Positions 1,570-11,773 of a stretch of DNA of 64,000 nt are shown one piece after another. How positions within the stretch are numbered: the first letter of the stretch is position 1; each line of letters opens with the position of its first letter. The stretch comes from a virus. The translations under genes were made by a program, and so were the position numbers. Location: the IMG/VR virus record IMGVR_UViG_3300021185_001231, one strand, 5' to 3'. The notes under the pieces are model-generated. The model ran no database searches and was not told the DNA's origin. It saw only the letters and a list, made by a program, of their open reading frames with translations.

Positions 1570-2340
1570 TTATTTATCCTCTTCTATCCAATTATCCAGA
1601 TGTTCAATATAAGCACCAATATTATGATCACTAAAATTATCTATGCGGCCGACTTTGATGCCCATCCACATCCCTCTTAATTTATCTTTGACTCTTTGCC
1701 AAGTAGTTAAATCACGGACCTTACCATAAGCGTTAATGTAACAAGAATCTCCGTGATGGGTATAACCCATTAATACTAAAGGAACTGTAGTAACGATATC
1801 GTTGTTATTTCTCCATCGATAATGTTTTACTGGGAGACTTTGACAGTATTTTCTCCAACCAACTCTAGGGGAACCGTAAGTGTAAAGTTCCTCAACATTA
1901 GGCATATCCTCGTCCAGAGTACACCTTGCAGCTATGATAGTTGCCATTGCGGCACCTAGACTATGACCAGTCACCCATAAAGTTCTTTTTGCGAAAACTT
2001 TAGGTACTAGATCTTCTTTTATCATAGGCCAGAGTTCATCTACCTCTCCTTTAAATCCTCGATGAACCCTACTTATAGTTTCGGAAATAACAGGTATCGC
2101 TTTGAGGTCAGCACTAATATCATTAAACTCGGTAGGTTGCGTTCCTCTACAAGCAATAACTAAATCTTTTTTATTCTGAAAACGATATGCCTGAGCACCA
2201 TCCTTATCATAAAATTCTACTTGAGTAAAACCAAGTTTCTTAGATTCCTTTTTAGCTTCCTTCAAAGGTAGGTAAGCGATAGCACTAAGCTTTGCGAACA
2301 AGGAACTTCTCTCGCGGACATTGGTCAATAATATACTCAT
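1570..2340 (-). CDS. Class 3 lipase (alpha/beta hydrolase)
   Basis: IACRGT, VHRGF, TGHSLGAA nucleophile elbow, YTYGSPRVG, NDIV and C-terminal DH. Confidence 0.88.
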   Translation of the reverse strand: MSILLTNVRERSSLFAKLSAIAYLPLKEAKKESKKLGFTQVEFYDKDGAQAYRFQNKKDLVIACRGTQPTEFNDISADLKAIPVISETISRVHRGFKGEVDELWPMIKEDLVPKVFAKRTLWVTGHSLGAAMATIIAARCTLDEDMPNVEELYTYGSPRVGWRKYCQSLPVKHYRWRNNNDIVTTVPLVLMGYTHHGDSCYINAYGKVRDLTTWQRVKDKLRGMWMGIKVGRIDNFSDHNIGAYIEHLDNWIEEDK

Positions 2341-2618
2341 AGTTCTTTCTCCAATTCTATAATTCTATCTTCTAGTTGATCTATTTTTCTGGCAATGTTG
2401 GGGTTTACTTTCTTCCAAGCATTGGGATCTTGGGTTAACCAAGTCCATTCATACTTCTCAACTAAACTATCTATTAAAGTGTCCCACTTACCGAATGTCC
2501 ACATAGCGATTTTAGTATCCCTCATGTATGCGATAAACAATGCACCTAGAATACTTCCACCTATAGCGGTGTAGACCCACAGAGTGTCACCAAACATACG
2601 TTCAATATTTTCCCACAT
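2337..2618 (-). CDS. Membrane protein with C-terminal coiled coil
   Basis: N-terminal TM (LWVYTAIGGSILGALFIAY), heptads at C-terminus; ATGA overlap with lipase. Confidence 0.65.
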   Translation of the reverse strand: MWENIERMFGDTLWVYTAIGGSILGALFIAYMRDTKIAMWTFGKWDTLIDSLVEKYEWTWLTQDPNAWKKVNPNIARKIDQLEDRIIELEKEL

Positions 2619-2620
2619 AA

Positions 2621-2800
2621 CTACAATCCTTTATGAAATTTAAGCAACTTCTTAAGTCGGTTAAGTTTTTTGGTATACCTAGGACCTTTATTAGATAAGA
2701 GTCTTATCTCTTTTTCTAGTTTTATTCCGTAAGTATCAAGTTTATCACCATCAACAAAAACCTTCCGGTTTTCTTTAATGTCAATACTCCATTCTTTCAT
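2621..2800 (-). CDS. 59-aa basic hypothetical protein (not in ORF track)
   Basis: Manual translation MKEWSIDIKENRKVFVDGDKLDTY...; AAGGA RBS; fills the intergenic gap. Confidence 0.55.
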   Translation of the reverse strand: MKEWSIDIKENRKVFVDGDKLDTYGIKLEKEIRLLSNKGPRYTKKLNRLKKLLKFHKGL

Positions 2801-2816
2801 AATATATATTCCTTAA

Positions 2817-3512
2817 TTATCTAGTCTTATTTTTCTTCTCTTGTGATACCCATTTCTTAGCAAGTCTAGATGATGGAGGTTTCTTTGACCATTGTCCCAC
2901 ACCTTTATATGCTGCCATAGTTTCTTTCTTAAAATCTTTTCCATCACTGTTATCAACTATGTATGTGTTCGATTTTCCAAACATCTGTTGAAACTTTCCA
3001 ATATTATCTTGTACAGCCTGCCACATAGGAGACAACATTTTTTTACCGATAGATCTTTTACGTTGTGCATCACGATCTACAGCTGTATCAAGGTTAGTGT
3101 TGACAATAATAATGGCAGTTTCATAACCCATTTTTTCAAGTTCTTTTTTCTGCTTCAACATCTTATCAGCATCTTTACCTGTACCATCGATAACAATACC
3201 AAGACGACCCTTAAGGTACATCTCTTTCTTAGTTGATGTAAGTTCTGTTGCCTTACCTCTGAGTTCTTGACCTTTAACAGAGAATATATTATCTGGACTC
3301 ATTTCCATTCCAGCTTTCTTCATTGCATTCTCAAACGCATCATCAGAATTTATTACTCTAAAACCAAAAGAAGTCAGAGCAGTTTTTCCAGCAATAAAAG
3401 ATTTTCCTGAACCCGGCCCTCCAGCAAGGAACACCGCTTTAAATATAGCAGGATCATTTACACCTTCTTCGAGATGTTCCAGTTCCTCACAGAATTGTTT
3501 AAACTTTTTCAC
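2817..3512 (-). CDS. P-loop kinase, zeta-toxin/AAA_33-like
   Basis: AVFLAGGPGSGKS Walker A, INSDD, IVIDGT, RxxxR lid. Confidence 0.75.
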   Translation of the reverse strand: MKKFKQFCEELEHLEEGVNDPAIFKAVFLAGGPGSGKSFIAGKTALTSFGFRVINSDDAFENAMKKAGMEMSPDNIFSVKGQELRGKATELTSTKKEMYLKGRLGIVIDGTGKDADKMLKQKKELEKMGYETAIIIVNTNLDTAVDRDAQRKRSIGKKMLSPMWQAVQDNIGKFQQMFGKSNTYIVDNSDGKDFKKETMAAYKGVGQWSKKPPSSRLAKKWVSQEKKNKTR

Positions 3513-4690: not shown

Positions 4691-4698
4691 TATTTATA
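4691..4698 (-). promoter_or_regulatory. T4-type late promoter
   Basis: TATAAATA about 45 nt upstream of the 4646 start. Confidence 0.65.
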
Positions 4699-6514
4699 TA
4701 AGTTTGGGTTTATAAATGGTTATTAGTTCTTCCTTACCCTTAACCTTTATGTTTCCTATTTCTTGACACCTAAAACTGTCACTTAGTTGTTCCTGTGTAT
4801 AACTAGATATAATAGTCTTATGTTCTAAGTAATCTCCTCGTGCTGCCGTAGCTTCTAGTCTAGCTGCCAAGTTGACTGCATCTCCAATAACCGAATAGTC
4901 AAATCTGGATTCACTACCCATGTTACCAACAATACAATCGCCGGTGTTAATCCCAGTACCAACATTAATGTCAGGAAGACCACGGGCTTTATATATTTCT
5001 TTAAGTTCATTTGTTTTTTCTTCTATCTCAATAGCTGATTTAACTGCCATTTCAGCATGGTTTTCACAGGATAATGGCGCATTCCAAAATGCCATTATGC
5101 AGTCTCCCATATACTTGTCAATAGTTCCTCCATTAGATAATATAATTTTTGTCATAGCGTCTAAGAATTCATTTACCAACTCTACTAATCCTTCAGGGTC
5201 GTCTTTGTTCTTGTAGTGTTCACTGATAGGAGTAAATCCACATATGTCCATAAAAAGAAAGGACATCTCTTTCTTCTCTCCTCCAAGTTTTAGGAGTGAC
5301 GGATCCTTCTGAAGCATGTAGACCATGTCTGGAGATAGATAAGTTCCAAATTGTTTCTTTATCTGCTCTTTGAGTTGGAAAGTAACATAGAATCTATTAA
5401 AAGAAGAGTGCGCAAAAACTACAAAAGATGACATCACCGGATACAATACGTCCAGTAGTATAAGAGATTCCATCCAATAGTAATGACCCACAACAAACCA
5501 ACTAGACATTATTCCTAATGAACCGAGGGCGGAAAACCATGTCGGTGTTTTGTAGACTATGAGAAGGATAAGAAATGAAGACATAATGATGACTAGTATT
5601 TCTAACTGATCTGCATACCAAGGCCTTTGTATTTGAATACCGTTCACTACAGTAGATATTAAGTGTGCTTGGATATCATGAGGCAGCATAGCACCAGTAG
5701 GAGTCGCGACAGGATTGACTAATCCTCCGGCGCTCAAACCCAGTATGATTATTTTTTCATCTGGTAGAGGGTCTCCAAAGGATACTCTTTCGTAGGTGTT
5801 CCAGTAGGCTATTTGTACATTTGAGTTTGGTGTGGTGTACATAAGAGGAAGTGAACCCATTCTCACCCACTCCACTCCAGCTTCTTTTATTTTTATTGCG
5901 AGGTTGGGTTGGAACTCCCAGACACGAAGTATCTCCAAAGCAACGGAAGGATAGAGGTGATCATTAGATAATACTGCTAAAGGAGACTCCCTCACAATAC
6001 CATCTACAGAAGGGGCGACAGTAACAGTTCCGACTCCGGCGGAGTCCTTTCCCATTATAGGATTTCTTATTCCGTTGTAGGAATACAACCAGTCAGAAGG
6101 ATTTCCATTACCGAGTTTGCCGAACCCCCTAGGAGGTGCCTTATTACTCTCTAACTGATTTGTTGTTAATGAAGATAGAATGACATCCCTATTAGACATA
6201 GAAGATATAAATTTTTCATCCCCACCAAACCTATCCCTTTCAGTAAAACCCATATTGAAAACATAGGCACTATTCTCTGGAGAAGACATCAACCAGTCTG
6301 CATATATGTCTCGACTAAACGGAAACTGACCATACCTATCTAAAGCCTTCTCGTCGATATCGACAATGACTATGTTATCCGATCGTATAGGTTCTTGATA
6401 TGACTGAAGAGAATCAAAATAATTTAGTCGGAATTGTTCGACTAGTTTGGGGTCAATTACTCTTACTGTACACAATAGAAGTATTGTTATGAGAACAACT
6501 TTCCAATTATACAT
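4694..6514 (-). CDS. CHASE2-domain membrane class III adenylate cyclase
   Basis: IVIVDIDEKAL..YGQFPFSR (CHASE2), three TMs, then FLFMDICGFT, IDKYMGDCIMAFWNAP, GNMGSESRFDYSVIGDAVNLAARLE with ATP-specifying K/D. Confidence 0.93.
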   Translation of the reverse strand: MYNWKVVLITILLLCTVRVIDPKLVEQFRLNYFDSLQSYQEPIRSDNIVIVDIDEKALDRYGQFPFSRDIYADWLMSSPENSAYVFNMGFTERDRFGGDEKFISSMSNRDVILSSLTTNQLESNKAPPRGFGKLGNGNPSDWLYSYNGIRNPIMGKDSAGVGTVTVAPSVDGIVRESPLAVLSNDHLYPSVALEILRVWEFQPNLAIKIKEAGVEWVRMGSLPLMYTTPNSNVQIAYWNTYERVSFGDPLPDEKIIILGLSAGGLVNPVATPTGAMLPHDIQAHLISTVVNGIQIQRPWYADQLEILVIIMSSFLILLIVYKTPTWFSALGSLGIMSSWFVVGHYYWMESLILLDVLYPVMSSFVVFAHSSFNRFYVTFQLKEQIKKQFGTYLSPDMVYMLQKDPSLLKLGGEKKEMSFLFMDICGFTPISEHYKNKDDPEGLVELVNEFLDAMTKIILSNGGTIDKYMGDCIMAFWNAPLSCENHAEMAVKSAIEIEEKTNELKEIYKARGLPDINVGTGINTGDCIVGNMGSESRFDYSVIGDAVNLAARLEATAARGDYLEHKTIISSYTQEQLSDSFRCQEIGNIKVKGKEELITIYKPKLI

Positions 6515-6518
6515 TCTA

Positions 6519-6686
6519 CTACCAGTCCTTTATAATATTAACCATAATCAATATGCCACAAAGAATATTTATTCCCACTATAAAAGTTCTTATTATCGCT
6601 ATAGCATTCTCAGAATCTGGGTTATAACCATCTTCTTCATCAAATGCTCCTAGTGAATGTTTCCATATCTGCCAATACTTTTTCAT
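6519..6686 (-). CDS. Small membrane protein
   Basis: Start MKKYW at 6686 in ATGA overlap with upstream stop; C-terminal TM. Confidence 0.6.
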   Translation of the reverse strand: MKKYWQIWKHSLGAFDEEDGYNPDSENAIAIIRTFIVGINILCGILIMVNIIKDW

Positions 6687-7432
6687 TGTTGTGTTACCGT
6701 AATTGTGCAACCACCCAAAGTCACACAGTTCTGTGTTAGGGTGTAGTTCATAACACCACTACCTTGTTGTGTAAGATTTAACATGGTTGGGTCTGAACCA
6801 TCTAAGGTAACATTAGCTGTGTGAGTTCCGTACAATTGGTTAACTGTAACATCATTAGAATCATTATCTATATTAAGTGTTAGATTTTTTTCTCCACTTC
6901 CAGCTTGTGTGTAAAAGACATCATTACTATCAGAATCGACATCTATAGATAAGTTGTGATCGGGGTTAGCTGTACCAGATTTCTGGCCACCCTTGATAGT
7001 ATTACTACCACCTAGAATATCGACATAAAGTGTATGGCCAGCATCCTCATGAGTATCTCTATCACAGGATGTGTCTGACATTCCCCCAGCAAATTTACAT
7101 CCCTGACCGACGTTTACGGTGTTATTATTTCCGTTAACATCAATGTACATCTTATTTACATCAGAGCTGATCGTGTTATTCCATTGTTGCGTGGTAATAG
7201 AATTTCCGTCTCCAGATATTCCCGACCCAGACTTCAACAACTCATTTCTATTTCCTTCCTGAAGGACATCCATAGTTAGTTGGTATCCACTCATCACAGT
7301 ATCGACTTTGTTGTTGTCACCAAATTGTCTTATTTTTAAGTTAAGATTATCGCCGGACTGATTGATATATATCTCATTATCAGCGCACAATTCGATACTA
7401 AACATTATAATTATAAAGAATATTTTTTTCAT
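6683..7432 (-). CDS. Secreted curlin-like repeat protein (CsgA/CsgB-like)
   Basis: Signal peptide; repeated x-I-x-Q-x-G-x-x-N units (DNEIYINQSGDNLNLKIRQFGDNN); sits in csgFG cluster. Confidence 0.75.
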   Translation of the reverse strand: MKKIFFIIIMFSIELCADNEIYINQSGDNLNLKIRQFGDNNKVDTVMSGYQLTMDVLQEGNRNELLKSGSGISGDGNSITTQQWNNTISSDVNKMYIDVNGNNNTVNVGQGCKFAGGMSDTSCDRDTHEDAGHTLYVDILGGSNTIKGGQKSGTANPDHNLSIDVDSDSNDVFYTQAGSGEKNLTLNIDNDSNDVTVNQLYGTHTANVTLDGSDPTMLNLTQQGSGVMNYTLTQNCVTLGGCTITVTQQ

Positions 7433-7433
7433 A

Positions 7434-8576
7434 TTAATTAACCTGAGTGATGTTTATAATAACACTCTGTCCGTCACCCAAAACTATTTCAGATTCTTTC
7501 TGATTAGATATAGTTCTTATGGTTGCGTTCTGAGACATTAACAATGTAAGGCTTATTATACCGTCAATGTTTCTATAAAATTTTACAGTTCCTAGACCAG
7601 TGTCGAGTATAGTGTTATACTGAGTGTCGACATTAAACCCTAATGTAGTTCCGGTAAGATCTATTCCCGTATTTAGTTTATCTTTATCTAGTCCTGTCAT
7701 TTTATCTAGATCATCAATAATATCCAAGACATCCTGAAGAAAATCTACATCCAGATAATCAATATCTAGTTCAGTAAATTCCAGATCATCATACTCCAAG
7801 TAATCATTTTCAAGTTCATTAAACTCTAGGAAATCTACATCCAATATATTATCCGAAGAATTTTCAGAAGACAACCCCTCTTCTCTTTTTACATCTTCAA
7901 TTTCTTTCGGTTCTACTATGATGAATATATTGCTAATCATAGAAGTATTGATTCCCGACAAGACGACTGGTTTTGTCGGAGCAGTATCATAGGAGGACAC
8001 CACAGAAGCTTGATAAGGTTCTTCTAATAAAGTTGTTCCACCATTATTGCTTATCATTATCTTTCCGGAAGACTTGCCAGTCTTTTCGTCAGGCAATAAT
8101 ATTATAAGAGATCTTCCGATCTCATCGATAGTGGTGGTGAAGTCTGTCCCAAGAACTGCGATCTGTGCGGTGGGAGTAGTGAGGTTTATATTAGATTTTT
8201 TTATTCTTTTACCGCGTCCAGAAGTAAATCTTGCGGTACCTTGGGCCATGCGGATAGCCATCCTAGACTTGGATGGATCAGGATCGTAGTATGCCTCATC
8301 AATATATATTTTTGTATGTTCTATCAGTGAAAGTTCTTCCTCATCCTTAAACTGAATGAGCATTCTTCCATTACCAGTTACCGCAGTATCCAGCAATTTT
8401 ATTTCTGGGACATTTTTTTCAGAAACAGAGAGTTCCTCACCACCCTTTCGAACTAGTGAGGCAACTCCATTTCTTTCTACTATATCACCAATGGGATCGG
8501 TAGATCCCAGAGATATATTAGTTAGCGTCAGACTGAATAATATTAATATCTGAATGAGTGGTAGCAAACGTCGCAT
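7434..8576 (-). CDS. Exported FecR-domain protein with acidic linker
   Basis: Signal-like N-terminus (MRRLLPLIQILILFSL; start uncertain), DTAVTGNGRMLIQF, GTARF, TPTAQIAVLGTDF FecR motif. Confidence 0.8.
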   Translation of the reverse strand: MRRLLPLIQILILFSLTLTNISLGSTDPIGDIVERNGVASLVRKGGEELSVSEKNVPEIKLLDTAVTGNGRMLIQFKDEEELSLIEHTKIYIDEAYYDPDPSKSRMAIRMAQGTARFTSGRGKRIKKSNINLTTPTAQIAVLGTDFTTTIDEIGRSLIILLPDEKTGKSSGKIMISNNGGTTLLEEPYQASVVSSYDTAPTKPVVLSGINTSMISNIFIIVEPKEIEDVKREEGLSSENSSDNILDVDFLEFNELENDYLEYDDLEFTELDIDYLDVDFLQDVLDIIDDLDKMTGLDKDKLNTGIDLTGTTLGFNVDTQYNTILDTGLGTVKFYRNIDGIISLTLLMSQNATIRTISNQKESEIVLGDGQSVIINITQVN

Positions 8577-9372
8577 CGAGTATTGCATTGTTAGTAACTC
8601 CAGTTGTGGAACCAGTATTCTGACCCACGAAAACAAAGTTATAATCACCAGTCACACCAACTGTTTGTCTGTTATCCGAACCGTCTTCCATACTTGTCTG
8701 AATCCAGTTATTAGATCCAGTAACATCCCAGTTCCAAGTGGCATTGTCCGAATTGAAGAAAACATTCAATGTGTTATCCGAACCAGTAACATCTAGATCC
8801 ATATCTAAAGTATCAGCTGTACCTTCAGTAGGATCCCAAGTTCCCCAGTATGCAGTTTGACCACTATTAGTCCTAGACCAAGTGCTTCCACTAACTGTCC
8901 AAAATTGTTCTGCGTTGGACTGATTCCAGAGGGGAGTGGATATGTTATAAACATCATCCGCATTACCAGCTCTTAGAATAACTGTGTTAGTATTACCCGT
9001 TATAGCAGAATCTATAGTTAGTGTATCTGCATCATTAGCAACACCTATCTTCTGATTCCATATGTTGTAGTTACCTACAGTGAAATTGTTGATAGTCGAA
9101 CCAGTAGTTACGATAGTACCAAACATTTTGTTGTAGTCACCATCTTGTTTTAAATCTAAGTACGAGTTAGAAATTGTCATGGTCATATCAATAGATGTAC
9201 CAGTAAAATCATCTCCACCGTATTTATTACCAGCACCGATTTGTTGTATAGTCAACTCAACGTTATCACCACTCTGTGCAATAAAAATCTCATTGTCGTT
9301 AGCATCACTAGCATAGGTATTAGTCGCAGCAAGACCGAGGACCAAGTATAGTGATTTTTTATTCATCTTCAT
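8518..9372 (-). CDS. Secreted curlin-like repeat protein (CsgA/CsgB-like)
   Basis: Signal peptide; DNEIFIAQSGDNVELTIQQIGAGN and repeated VTGxxN/QxGxxN units. Confidence 0.75.
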   Translation of the reverse strand: MKMNKKSLYLVLGLAATNTYASDANDNEIFIAQSGDNVELTIQQIGAGNKYGGDDFTGTSIDMTMTISNSYLDLKQDGDYNKMFGTIVTTGSTINNFTVGNYNIWNQKIGVANDADTLTIDSAITGNTNTVILRAGNADDVYNISTPLWNQSNAEQFWTVSGSTWSRTNSGQTAYWGTWDPTEGTADTLDMDLDVTGSDNTLNVFFNSDNATWNWDVTGSNNWIQTSMEDGSDNRQTVGVTGDYNFVFVGQNTGSTTGVTNNAILDATFATTHSDINIIQSDAN

Positions 9373-10201
9373 TTGTTTCTCCTATTACCCAATAGCCCCT
9401 GTCGTGCCCTTGGTAAATTAATTCTAATACAGCTTCTTCTACGGCAGCACGTGTTGCATATGTGACACTTTCGTTGAAACCATTTCCATCTTCGAATTCT
9501 ATAAGTTTGGTATCCATATCAACAAACCTAAAGACATCATAACCACCACCAGCAGACAATATAGATTTCCTTGTCTGTACATTAAGTAATATTTCACCAG
9601 TGAGAGTCGATGTTGCCCTAAGACTTATGACAATCGAATCCCTCCTATATTGAGAACTTTTACCTATTCCTAGGTACCTAGCTCCCCTACCACCACTTTC
9701 AATGTTAGTATCATAACCTATGATACCTCCATCAATGATAATACCTGCGAATAGAAGAGGATCGAGTTTATTATCTTTACTTTTCTTCTCCCACTCCTCT
9801 CTCGCAGATCTTATAATCTGTCTCTCTCTAACAAGGTTGTCTAACCCTACTCTATCAACTACCCGAAACCAAGAACCCCCGCCCGCAGTTTTTAATGCGT
9901 CTATTACAAACGCCTCTGCTCCTTGGGTTACCGCAGTAGAAAAATCCGCAATATTATCTCGACTTTTTCTTTGACCTGTCAAGTCTTTAAAACTGTAAAC
10001 CGCAACTATAGGTCTAACCTTAGCTGCCGGAAGATTCGCAAGTTTCTCCGAGGCCGGTAAAGTCACAACCTCAGCACTTTCTCTACACTCATAAACATAT
10101 TGATTCAAAAGACCTTCTCGATCTTCACAATCTATTATGGATGGTCTGGGTATTCCAGCGCAACCCGATAGAATAATAAGAGATAATAAAATTAGTCTCA
10201 T
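9359..10201 (-). CDS. csgG: Curli secretion channel lipoprotein CsgG
   Basis: Lipobox LSGC; VAVYSFKDLTGQRK, FSTAVTQG, WFRVVDRVGLDNLVRERQIIR, GGIIGYDTN. Confidence 0.93.
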   Translation of the reverse strand: MRLILLSLIILSGCAGIPRPSIIDCEDREGLLNQYVYECRESAEVVTLPASEKLANLPAAKVRPIVAVYSFKDLTGQRKSRDNIADFSTAVTQGAEAFVIDALKTAGGGSWFRVVDRVGLDNLVRERQIIRSAREEWEKKSKDNKLDPLLFAGIIIDGGIIGYDTNIESGGRGARYLGIGKSSQYRRDSIVISLRATSTLTGEILLNVQTRKSILSAGGGYDVFRFVDMDTKLIEFEDGNGFNESVTYATRAAVEEAVLELIYQGHDRGYWVIGETNEDE

Positions 10202-10671
10202 TAAAATCCACCAGCACCGATAGGAACATCCAAAGTAGTAACAGTTCCATCTTCACTGACTACCGTGATTCTTATCACGTCAGTACCATCAGCTCCACCA
10301 CCGTATATAGTTTCATAGGTGATAGAGTTTCCTTCAATCTCAAAAAAACCAGACTCCGAGGAATCTGTATTACCAAACATATTGTCTACCAATTGTTTGG
10401 CAATCTGTGCGTATATTCTACTTTCTAAATTACGCAAGAACTTTGCTTGCGTAGTATTGTTTGCATCTCTTTCAGCTTGTGCGATTGCCGATTCTATATC
10501 ATCCTTTATTTCTTCCCTACGAGATCTTTCTTGATTCTCGATAGTAAGATAATGTGAAGAAGTTCCTATACCACTAAAAGAAGGAGATTTAAACTTATGA
10601 GTAATTTGATCTGAGTAAGAGTAAGTTGCATATAGTAATAAACTAATCAGTGTTCCGGTTATTTTTTTCAT
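10201..10671 (-). CDS. csgF: Curli assembly component CsgF
   Basis: Signal peptide then HKFKSPSFSG (cf. F.NP.FGG), FLRNLESRI, C-terminal TTLDVP; directly upstream of csgG. Confidence 0.85.
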   Translation of the reverse strand: MKKITGTLISLLLYATYSYSDQITHKFKSPSFSGIGTSSHYLTIENQERSRREEIKDDIESAIAQAERDANNTTQAKFLRNLESRIYAQIAKQLVDNMFGNTDSSESGFFEIEGNSITYETIYGGGADGTDVIRITVVSEDGTVTTLDVPIGAGGF

Positions 10672-10909
10672 TCTCTTTCTCCTGAATTATCATGTCCAAT
10701 TTAGTTTTCATACGAATCAAATCATTATCCAACATTCTAACCCTGTCAATAAGTGCTATCAATGTCATATGAGATTCTGAAACTACAGGGTCAACTTCTG
10801 TCGTAACCCACTTCCAGATATAAAATATAAAGTAACCCAATCCAAATGCTGCAATAATGGGAAACCCATATTTACTTATAGCATCAGCAATAGTCAATTC
10901 TTCCATCAA
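10643..10909 (-). CDS. Small membrane protein, GFPI motif (YvrJ-like)
   Basis: ISKYGFPIIAAFGLGYFI TM plus coiled coil; paralog of next ORF. Confidence 0.7.
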   Translation of the reverse strand: MMEELTIADAISKYGFPIIAAFGLGYFIFYIWKWVTTEVDPVVSESHMTLIALIDRVRMLDNDLIRMKTKLDMIIQEKENEKNNRNTD

Positions 10910-11184
10910 TCCTTTCTCGCATCCTTTTGTCCGTCAGCTCGCGCAATTCTATCTACATCCGGAGTAACTCCAAATGCTTGACACATAAGAACATCGACAC
11001 GAACAAGTTCATTGTTCATAGTTTTGACACGATTGTCTAAGGATTTTGCAAACCCACGTTGGGTTTTTATGTCACTAAGAACACCATCAAGAATAAATCG
11101 TAAAGTTAGGAATACAAAGAAACCCCCAGCGAGAGCGGAGGCAATAGGAAAACCTACATCAGTTACCATTGTAAGAAAGTTCAT
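10906..11184 (-). CDS. Small membrane protein, GFPI motif (YvrJ-like)
   Basis: VTDVGFPIASALAGGFFV TM plus coiled coil; first gene after late promoter. Confidence 0.7.
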   Translation of the reverse strand: MNFLTMVTDVGFPIASALAGGFFVFLTLRFILDGVLSDIKTQRGFAKSLDNRVKTMNNELVRVDVLMCQAFGVTPDVDRIARADGQKDARKD

Positions 11185-11221
11185 TCTAGTAGTATCGTAT
11201 ATGTCAAATAAATTATACTAC

Positions 11222-11229
11222 TATTTATA
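11222..11229 (-). promoter_or_regulatory. T4-type late promoter of curli/cyclase operon
   Basis: TATAAATA about 38 nt upstream of the first operon gene. Confidence 0.75.
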
Positions 11230-11251
11230 ACAGAATAGATCTCTAAATTAA

Positions 11252-11318
11252 ATAAAAGAGCAGTTTTCCACATACTCAGGTGGTTTAGATCCCAAGGTAG
11301 CATCAAGGGATATAAACC
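11252..11318 (-). other. Structured RNA element (hairpin, H-type pseudoknot, U tract)
   Basis: GGTTTAtATCCC/GGGATcTAAACC stem; CCAC/GTGG and GAGTA/TGCTC crossing stems; TTTTATT. Confidence 0.55.
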
Positions 11319-11326
11319 TATTTATA
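11319..11326 (-). promoter_or_regulatory. T4-type late promoter
   Basis: TATAAATA in intergenic DNA. Confidence 0.6.
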
Positions 11327-11342
11327 CTGAGAAGTGTAAAAT

Positions 11343-11585
11343 TTATACTATTTCCTTTTTCAATCTTTCAATGTAGATGGTAGCGTCCATCAGTTCTTCC
11401 TGTAGGTGCGTTAACCAACCCATCAAATCTATATCTGTTCTGGTGGTATCCGTTCCATATTTATCAAATCCCGCTTTAGCTCTGGACCTATAAGAATCCA
11501 TAACAGATTCCACATTAGGGTCTACCATATCATCTAATATCTTGTGTGCGTTCAACATAGTTAAACTCATAACACTTTCCTCCAA
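11343..11585 (-). CDS. Small phage protein, possibly all-alpha NTP pyrophosphatase-like
   Basis: KYG...WLTHLQEELMDATIY pattern. Confidence 0.55.
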   Translation of the reverse strand: MEESVMSLTMLNAHKILDDMVDPNVESVMDSYRSRAKAGFDKYGTDTTRTDIDLMGWLTHLQEELMDATIYIERLKKEIV

Positions 11586-11773
11586 TCATCATCGACATCA
11601 TCATTAATAATCACACTAGTATCCTGATCTAACCCCACGGTATTGAGATTAACATAATCTTCTATCATCTCTCTGACAACATCACTCATAGATACTTCTT
11701 TCTTGTCACAAACTTTTCTGAACCTTTCCTTTAATTCAGGGGCTATTCTAAATTGTGTCATTGGTGTTTTCAT
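11567..11773 (-). CDS. Ribbon-helix-helix DNA-binding protein
   Basis: TQFRIAPELKERF...SMSDVVREMIEDYV CopG/Arc pattern. Confidence 0.7.
   Translation of the reverse strand: MKTPMTQFRIAPELKERFRKVCDKKEVSMSDVVREMIEDYVNLNTVGLDQDTSVIINDDVDDDWRKVL

Follow-up and report, generated by a model that had tools for sequence, protein, structure and literature searches.

A further copy of the viral curli-type secretion cassette, with a FecR-domain protein and a CHASE2 adenylate cyclase, in an uncultured T4-like marine phage

Layout of the locus

The subject of this report is a cassette of nine genes in a stretch of viral DNA of 64,000 nucleotides (nt), the IMG/VR record IMGVR_UViG_3300021185_001231, which is referred to below as the window. 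The cassette combines the type VIII secretion (curli) genes csgF and csgG with genes for two curlin-like proteins (A and B), a FecR-domain protein, a CHASE2 class III adenylate cyclase, two related membrane proteins (TM1 and TM2; TM, transmembrane) and a further small TM protein (Table 1). It is a further copy of the curli (type VIII secretion system, T8SS) region that has already been published for marine T4-like and podo-type phages, and as a discovery the window adds only another copy of a known cassette. The additions made here are an argument for a chimeric origin of the cassette and a three-part model of its FecR-domain protein. These additions are modest, and they make a signalling hypothesis testable.

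To judge from its sequence, the window is DNA of a T4-like phage, marine and uncultured; the major capsid gene of Methylophilales phage Melnitz and gp23 of Prochlorococcus phage P-HM1 are matched by its capsid region. The nine open reading frames (ORFs) of the cassette are packed on the minus strand in 4694-11229, and adjacent genes either share 1-71 nt or leave a gap of at most 4 nt. The original prediction, which was made from the letters of the window, had described nine co-oriented, overlapping or nearly touching genes behind the late promoter motif TATAAATA, and both the ORFs and the motif were confirmed. A second copy of the motif lies further upstream (11319-11326, minus strand). The copy at the distal border of the cassette starts the following late unit and therefore marks the cassette end. 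No copy lies inside the cassette; across the window, 16 copies were observed against 7.2 expected. Since the motif is present at both borders and there is none between them, a single late transcription unit is a reasonable inference, and the cassette is probably expressed late as such a unit.

Five families, CsgF, CsgG, FecR, CHASE2 and Guanylate_cyc, are matched above their curated Pfam cut-offs, which bears out the identities first given to csgF, csgG, the FecR gene and the cyclase gene. Seven of the nine products are placed in PHROG families, and the two curlin-like proteins match none. Judging from hydropathy and N-termini, all nine products carry predicted export or membrane signals.

Table 1. 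Features of the cassette and its borders, in the order of transcription (aa, amino acids; TM, transmembrane)
Feature	Positions	Strand	Description
Late promoter motif TATAAATA	11222-11229	-	T4-type; 38 nt 5' of the first ATG (TM1)
TM1	10906-11184	-	92-aa bitopic protein; N-terminal Gly/Ala-rich TM helix, C-terminal helical part; first 'GFPI' paralogue
TM2	10643-10906	-	~87 aa; second 'GFPI' paralogue; ATG at 10906, mechanical ORF from TTG at 10909
csgF	10201-10671	-	156 aa; Sec signal peptide; conserved N-terminal motif KFKSPSFSG
csgG	9359-10201	-	280-aa lipoprotein; lipobox LSGC at residues 11-14; outer-membrane T8SS channel family
Curlin-like A	8518-9372	-	284 aa; Sec signal peptide; predicted beta-solenoid
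FecR-domain protein	7434-8588	-	384 aa; gene between curlin-like A and B
Curlin-like B	6683-7432	-	249 aa; Sec signal peptide
Small TM protein	6519-6686	-	~55 aa from ATG at 6686; C-terminal TM helix
CHASE2 class III adenylate cyclase	4694-6514	-	606 aa
TATAAATA of the next late unit	4691-4698	-	overlaps the cyclase stop codon; heads the following gene

Pore proteins and small membrane proteins

By their family matches, CsgG and CsgF are members of the type VIII secretion (curli) families. CsgG matches its Pfam family at E = 3e-47 (161 bits, cut-off 20.8) and its NCBIfam family at 4e-49, and CsgF matches Pfam CsgF at 3.4e-11 (43.9 bits, cut-off 25.8) and belongs to phrog_35372. Searches with Pfam and NCBIfam found no match to CsgE, CsgC/H or CsgD among the nine products. 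The corresponding genes are absent, too, from the published phage and alphaproteobacterial modules (PMC9599517).

TM1 and TM2, the genes of which had been noted as 'GFPI' paralogues, are indeed paralogous: they are 26% identical (E 4e-9) and share phrog_18771 (at 2.5e-25 and 4.5e-30, respectively). They have no Pfam match, the PHROG, which has no assigned function, being their sole family, and a search of the ESM Atlas with TM1 returned unnamed viral clusters only. TM1 is kept in every phage locus of sufficient length, which leaves aside just two that are truncated by the contig. Both proteins are labelled 'histidine kinase' in PMC9599517. This assignment was ruled out, for proteins of ~87-92 aa in which a kinase domain is undetectable. 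The TM1 and TM2 helices (window 10643-11184) are rich in Gly, Ala and Ser, and are reminiscent of the signal-anchor-release helices of phage lysis proteins.

The small TM protein belongs to phrog_1679 (5.8e-15). Its gene before the cyclase is found in some close relatives only, with weaker matches elsewhere in a few loci.

The FecR-domain protein

The FecR-domain protein matches Pfam FecR at 2.8e-10 (41 bits, cut-off 24). Its gene had been taken to begin at the GTG at 8648; the ATG at 8588 is the most likely start, and it is followed by a Sec signal peptide. A model was built with AlphaFold2 (AF2) from a 30-sequence alignment. After the signal peptide, the model has a confident FecR fold (residues ~30-215), a linker of ~90 residues (~220-310) that is acidic, Leu-periodic and modelled with low confidence, and a confident C-terminal beta domain of ~70 residues (311-384) that ends in IINITQVN. 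This three-part architecture is conserved in alignments A1 and A3.

The FecR fold is matched in Foldseek by 4m0h and 6ovk (6ovk_R), with E ~1.5e-4 and a probability of 1.0; these are periplasmic domains of anti-sigma factors, and they include PupR bound to its outer-membrane transducer. The best NCBIfam match of the FecR domain is the Leptospira surface adhesin Lsa33 (E 1e-6). The possibility that the protein is an iron regulator was ruled out, as it has neither the anti-sigma half nor FecI and FecA partners, and Pfam gave no family match to an ECF sigma factor or a TonB-dependent transducer among the cassette products. As it lacks a cytoplasmic anti-sigma part, the protein is named here for its FecR domain and is not classed as a FecR regulator.

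The C-terminal beta domain is weakly like 5IX9 in the models compared with Foldseek (64 residues, TM-score 0.73, E 5e-3). 5IX9 is the retention or anchoring domain of MpIBP/LapA-type adhesins; in these proteins a flexible segment runs through a pore of the outer membrane and, together with a folded plug, keeps the adhesin at the cell surface (bioRxiv 10.1101/198937). The likeness may be taken as a lead and not as a result. A 'curlin-like C-terminal strand' in the same domain was also considered, and was reduced by profile comparison to a short motif resemblance.

The curlin-like proteins

The curlin assignment of A and B, which was part of the original prediction, is weak by sequence, and the profile search and the model lend it some support. 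The NCBIfam matches, to CsgA for B (E 1.1e-4) and to CsgB for A (E 0.046), fall far short of the cut-offs. When the family profile of curlin-like A was compared with the PDB, two matches were obtained, and both are curlins (8c50, E 6.8e-4, and CsgA 8enq, E 0.032). In the alignment of 19 homologues of A, G-x-x-N motifs recur every ~22 residues. The AF2 model of A is a regular beta-solenoid (pTM 0.74), which gives generic beta-helix matches up to Z 16 in structure comparison with VIA-align; the best match of the model in Foldseek has E 0.046. There is thus some support, from the profile search and the predicted beta-solenoid, for A and B being of curlin type.

The similarity between A and B is confined to the N-terminal ~59 mature residues (37% identity over 59 aa), and B is optional among the relatives. 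Curlin-like A has a Trp-rich insert of ~45 aa (residues ~140-185; window 8800-8950), which is shared with close relatives of the phage only. The insert is modelled with low confidence, like a decoration on the solenoid, and the curlin-like A of one relative (L019) has a different and longer insert.

The CHASE2 cyclase

The cyclase has an N-terminal TM helix (residues 4-22), a periplasmic CHASE2 domain, three TM helices at ~300-371 and a cytoplasmic cyclase domain (412-602). The Pfam matches are well above the cut-offs for both CHASE2 (5e-29, 102 bits against 26.3) and Guanylate_cyc (3e-21, 76 against 21.9). The catalytic domain aligns best with CyaB of P. aeruginosa (PDB 3R5G, E 3e-34), and the class III catalytic set, D423, D471, K467, D539, N548 and R552, aligns with the motifs of that structure, so the catalytic and ATP-selecting residues are intact, as had been proposed. 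D423, K467, D471 and R552 are invariant, and N548 is nearly so, in an alignment with 17 homologues (A4). We take D423 and D471 to be metal-binding, K467 and D539 to be adenine-selecting, and N548 and R552 to act on the transition state. The features of the sequence identify the protein as an intact membrane receptor-type adenylate cyclase.

The same cassette in other phages

The viral T8SS region, including FecR and the cyclase, was described in podo- and myo-type pelagiphages by Wittmers et al. in 2022 (PMC9599517). The trees of these authors point to Alphaproteobacteria as its source, and they also reported transcripts and a worldwide occurrence (PMC9599517); the region was found at 65 of 65 ocean virome stations, and accounts for ~0.1% of viral proteins (PMC9599517). 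The novelty that was originally claimed for the combination of pore, FecR protein and cyclase is thus not upheld, and lysis timing and cell aggregation, which were suggested as roles, had also been proposed before (PMC9004378).

Pelagibacter phage HTVC008M (gp011-019, NC_020484) and Methylophilales phage Melnitz (gp97-104, MZ577097) are cultured examples. In their GenBank records, CsgF, CsgG, a curlin-associated protein, a FecR-domain protein and adenylate cyclase are annotated one after another as in the window, and the cyclase of the window is, by tblastn, 45% identical to that of HTVC008M and 34% identical to that of Melnitz. At the nucleotide level, a Megablast search of a phage collection with the cassette gave no match.

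A scan of IMG/VR seeded with CsgG yielded 80 loci (CsgG identity 56-96%), which were searched by tblastn with all nine products. The order TM1-TM2-CsgF-CsgG-curlin-like A-FecR-curlin-like B-cyclase is found in all 80, and the cyclase is lacking only where the contig stops. Wherever a related phage locus is long enough, FecR and the cyclase are kept with csgF and csgG, so the check on co-conservation proposed with the original prediction does not refute it. Metagenomic copies of the cassette number in the thousands, with more than 4000 homologues of FecR. More distant T4-like or jumbo contigs have CsgF, CsgG, one beta-rich protein, FecR and the CHASE2 cyclase, with FecR immediately ahead of the cyclase even where curlin-like B is lacking, and TM1/TM2 homologues are nearby; in one locus (L129) the FecR and cyclase genes overlap by 4 nt.

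Two of the large contigs have unusual surroundings. In a contig of 106 kb (L153; regions 9086-10246 and 1984-3214), a protein with a PA14/GLEYA adhesin domain comes after FecR, and the cyclase gene is 6 kb further on, past genes for a 1068-aa protein, a metallophosphoesterase and a glycosyltransferase; genes for a heme oxygenase and a bilin reductase are nearby, which suggests a cyanophage-like genome. In a contig of 344 kb with many small ORFs of unassigned function (L152), which is probably from a jumbo phage, the cassette adjoins genes for ClpX, ribosomal protein S21, GroES/GroEL, HSP20 and ClpS, and the TM1/TM2 homologues lie downstream on the opposite strand.

A profile search (A2) of genome contigs mostly found contigs of marine metagenome-assembled genomes (MAGs) with the full phage cassette, all of which carry TM1/TM2. 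These contigs (L084-L100), some of them of 100-140 kb, are labelled Pelagibacter, Flavobacteriaceae, Synechococcus, Planctomycetaceae, Neomarinimicrobiota, Sphingobacteriales and Luteolibacter, and the closest FecR homologue is labelled Euryarchaeota in nr. They were rejected as true bacterial loci, and are most likely phage contigs that were binned into MAGs. Some metagenomic contigs of 2-5 kb were left aside as too small for classification, and a few others showed part of the gene context only.

A role in the timing of lysis was proposed by Buchholz et al. in 2022, who also raised aggregation (PMC9004378). In such an account, the CsgG/CsgF pore would be a lysis or permeability device, perhaps with TM1/TM2 as holin- or antiholin-like partners, the cyclase would give the timing signal, and the 'curlins' would not be fibres. 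The late promoter at the head of the cassette agrees with this account, as do the two phage-specific, bitopic, Gly/Ala-rich TM proteins, which accompany the cassette and are missing from both bacterial-type csgF-csgG operons described below. The published case consists of a structural argument together with the observation that Melnitz-infected cells showed no clumping (PMC9004378). However, two secreted beta-solenoid proteins and FecR are conserved with the pore, and are left unexplained; the core operon is also present in bacteria, where a lysis role is impossible; and TM1/TM2 match no holin or antiholin family. A lysis device is therefore considered improbable.

Bacterial relatives and the origin of the parts

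When a full library was searched with the FecR-domain protein, only proteins of ~350-400 residues were found. One of these short FecR proteins (P0221) is encoded on a 345-kb contig of the bacterial assembly GCA_041447055.1, amid housekeeping genes, in the order CsgF, CsgG, a Curlin_rpt protein, FecR and a 215-aa protein. A second bacterial-type operon with the same arrangement is found in a metagenomic contig of 57% GC (L151:5586-10245). On this gene order, some curli-type operons of bacteria include the short FecR protein as a native component. The finding qualifies a statement in PMC9599517, according to which curli operons in bacteria do not include FecR.

Both bacterial-type operons have the short FecR gene between curlin-like genes, and neither has a cyclase. 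A podophage-like contig (L126) likewise has FecR, and stops there, with no cyclase. From these loci it follows that FecR has some role independent of the cyclase. FecR might, accordingly, be an accessory of type VIII secretion, that is, an adaptor, a chaperone or a cap in place of the missing CsgE/CsgC, or a part of a fibre tip or adhesin, and the cyclase might sense a separate periplasmic cue and merely share the late operon. Besides the cyclase-free loci, this explanation is favoured by the lack of a recognisable CsgE, CsgC or CsgD among the nine products, by the Lsa33 match of the FecR domain, and by the adhesin-domain protein that follows FecR in L153. Against it, all myophage-type loci have the FecR and cyclase genes side by side or almost so, to the point of overlap in L129, and FecR-domain and CHASE2 genes are neighbours far above chance in Alphaproteobacteria. 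An accessory role of this kind is on the whole unlikely, if far from negligible.

The evidence from Alphaproteobacteria is as follows. Among 401 sampled genomes, full-length matches to the FecR-domain protein occur only on two phage-like contigs of one MAG; 118 other genomes match only through FecR domains inside long proteins. Twenty loci with long FecR proteins were picked by the similarity of the FecR domain alone. A CHASE2 gene, a class III cyclase gene or both lie within ~4 kb in 9-10 of the 20 loci, while proximity by chance is put at ~1% by our own rough estimate. The cyclase domains of these loci are mostly 44-51% (overall 35-51%) identical to that of the phage. None of the 20 loci has csgG or csgF. 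FecR/CHASE2 gene clusters have been published in bacteria (PMC9239204, PMC5192318). Hence the neighbourhood of CHASE2 and FecR-domain genes in bacteria, to which the original prediction had appealed, was recovered, and at the level of gene order the association is real and far above chance.

The short FecR protein occurs in curli operons without a cyclase, and the CHASE2 cyclase occurs beside long FecR-domain proteins. As far as gene content and similarity can tell, the phage cassette therefore looks chimeric, with two modules from bacteria joined and two phage-specific membrane proteins added. One module resembles a csgF-csgG-curlin-FecR-curlin operon, and the other a CHASE2 cyclase such as normally adjoins long FecR-domain proteins. 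A curli-FecR operon and a CHASE2 cyclase together were not found in bacteria among the loci examined.

The genes that adjoin both bacterial operons encode a histidine kinase, two response regulators and a response-regulator-EAL protein, and they suggest that the bacterial curli-FecR operons are under the control of cyclic di-GMP (c-di-GMP), where the phage has cyclic AMP (cAMP). A related proposal, made in the discussion of PMC9599517 (Wittmers et al. 2022), is that the cyclase and FecR regulate the expression of the module itself or of host genes instead of sensing the envelope apparatus, with cAMP in place of the CsgD-type control of curli in Gammaproteobacteria. The regulatory neighbours of the bacterial operons fit this proposal, since the operon then has a signalling module of some kind at its side in bacteria and phages alike. 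On the other hand, late co-transcription from a phage promoter means that the module cannot control its own induction, the FecR-domain protein lacks a cytoplasmic anti-sigma domain and begins with a signal peptide that is cleavable, and no regulator that binds cyclic nucleotides was found in the five phage records searched (see below). Regulation of this kind appears very improbable.

Proposed role of the cassette

Our tentative reading, which we hold at somewhat less than an even chance, is that the pore, the FecR-domain protein and the CHASE2 cyclase of the phage cassette form a coupled trans-envelope sensor. Late in infection, CsgG and CsgF would give the host, which has no such channel, a passage through its outer membrane. 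The two curlin-like proteins, predicted beta-solenoids with signal peptides, would be exported through the channel and form surface fibres or a coat. The FecR-domain protein would stay on the secretion apparatus, with its FecR domain in the periplasm and its acidic linker and C-terminal beta domain engaging the pore or passing through it. The FecR domain would thereby be presented to the periplasmic CHASE2 domain, so that the state of the pore or fibre, or a surface-bound agent, might set the synthesis of cAMP. The logic of NsrA and CyaK in S. meliloti would thus be copied, the T8SS pore replacing the barrel of NsrA itself, and the reader of cAMP would presumably be a host protein.

Several points weigh against a coupled sensor of this kind, in addition to the cyclase-free operons, the podophage-like contig and the lack of clumping in Melnitz-infected cells already mentioned. 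The curlin calls are below every curated threshold, with E 2-6 for Pfam Curlin_rpt. The profile-profile comparison of the C-terminal domain of the FecR-domain protein with the curlin-like family found no similarity. A contact between the FecR-domain protein and CHASE2 is not shown by any result here; complex prediction with FecR residues 29-384 (A3) and CHASE2 residues 23-302 (A4), which gave a score of 0.00 in two runs, speaks neither for nor against it. The cNMP_binding family (PF00027) was not found in HTVC008M, Melnitz or three related uncultivated virus genomes (UViGs), and among three incomplete Pelagibacter MAGs it was present in one, with two matches.

The original prediction had described one machine in which the curlins report an outside cue to FecR and the cyclase. 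The linkage of FecR and the cyclase stands; the coupling of the two is less certain, as the short FecR protein is also found in cyclase-free operons and may serve secretion instead. That the curlins sense an outside cue was overstated, and no result here supports it. The earlier interpretation is thus partly supported: on the analysis given here, trans-envelope sensing is plausible, with NsrA/CyaK as a precedent, and unproven. The more specific version, in which a pore with the FecR-domain protein threaded through it or docked on it replaces the NsrA-type barrel and drives CHASE2, and in which fibre assembly or surface contact is sensed late in infection, is somewhat unlikely. If true, FecR-to-CHASE2 signalling could be assembled in a second and modular manner, and a function would be assigned to the FecR-domain proteins inside bacterial curli operons.

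SAR11 and OM43 cells lack curli genes of their own, and the cassette would provide them with an outer-membrane pore, surface proteins and a source of a second messenger. The chimeric origin, the build of the FecR-domain protein and the NsrA/CyaK precedent offer experimental handles for HTVC008M in SAR11, for Melnitz in OM43 or for E. coli.

Sequences upstream of the cassette

A non-coding stretch of ~110 nt (11230-11342) lies upstream of the cassette, between the minus-strand TATAAATA motifs at 11319-11326 and at the head of the cassette. Just upstream of the cassette on the same strand, 11567-11773 (-) encodes a 68-aa Arc/CopG-like ribbon-helix-helix protein that matches PHROG transcription-regulator families (E 3e-5). 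The Arc/CopG-like gene is followed by a gene for an 80-aa protein, the function of which is unassigned.

Comparison with known systems

The closest known systems are those of HTVC008M and Melnitz, which share the order of two small membrane proteins, CsgF, CsgG, a curlin-like protein, FecR, a curlin-like protein and the CHASE2 cyclase. The protein identities of the cassette products are 31-52% to HTVC008M and 28-55% to Melnitz. The window differs from the published viral T8SS region in the small TM gene before the cyclase and in the Trp-rich insert of curlin-like A.

The bacterial csgF-csgG-curlin-FecR-curlin operons are alike in their core order and in the three-part FecR protein, which is 26-34% identical to that of the phage. 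Unlike the phage cassette, they are GC-rich and have neither the CHASE2 cyclase nor TM1/TM2. In comparison with the curli genes of E. coli (csgBAC/csgDEFG), the cassette has CsgG and CsgF family members and putative substrates that are predicted beta-solenoids with N/Q/G-rich repeats. In contrast to E. coli, the phage has no CsgE, CsgC or CsgD, its substrates miss the Curlin_rpt, CsgA and CsgB thresholds, and it adds the FecR-domain protein and the cyclase.

With the FecR/PupR anti-sigma factors, the phage protein has the periplasmic FecR fold in common. It differs from them in having a cleavable signal peptide, and neither a cytoplasmic anti-sigma domain nor a membrane anchor.

The last comparison is with NsrA and CyaK of S. 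meliloti. NsrA itself is said to carry a FecR domain. The perception of the signal by NsrA requires CyaK, and the CHASE2 cyclase in turn needs the outer-membrane protein in order to respond to an external protein (PMC7529298, PMC13001267). The phage FecR-domain protein, of 384 aa, differs from NsrA in having no outer-membrane barrel, a separate CsgG pore being present instead, and NsrA-type bacterial loci are without csgG or csgF. The cassette and the NsrA/CyaK system (and CyaD1/D2) are alike in that an inner-membrane CHASE2 class III cyclase is encoded beside an envelope protein.

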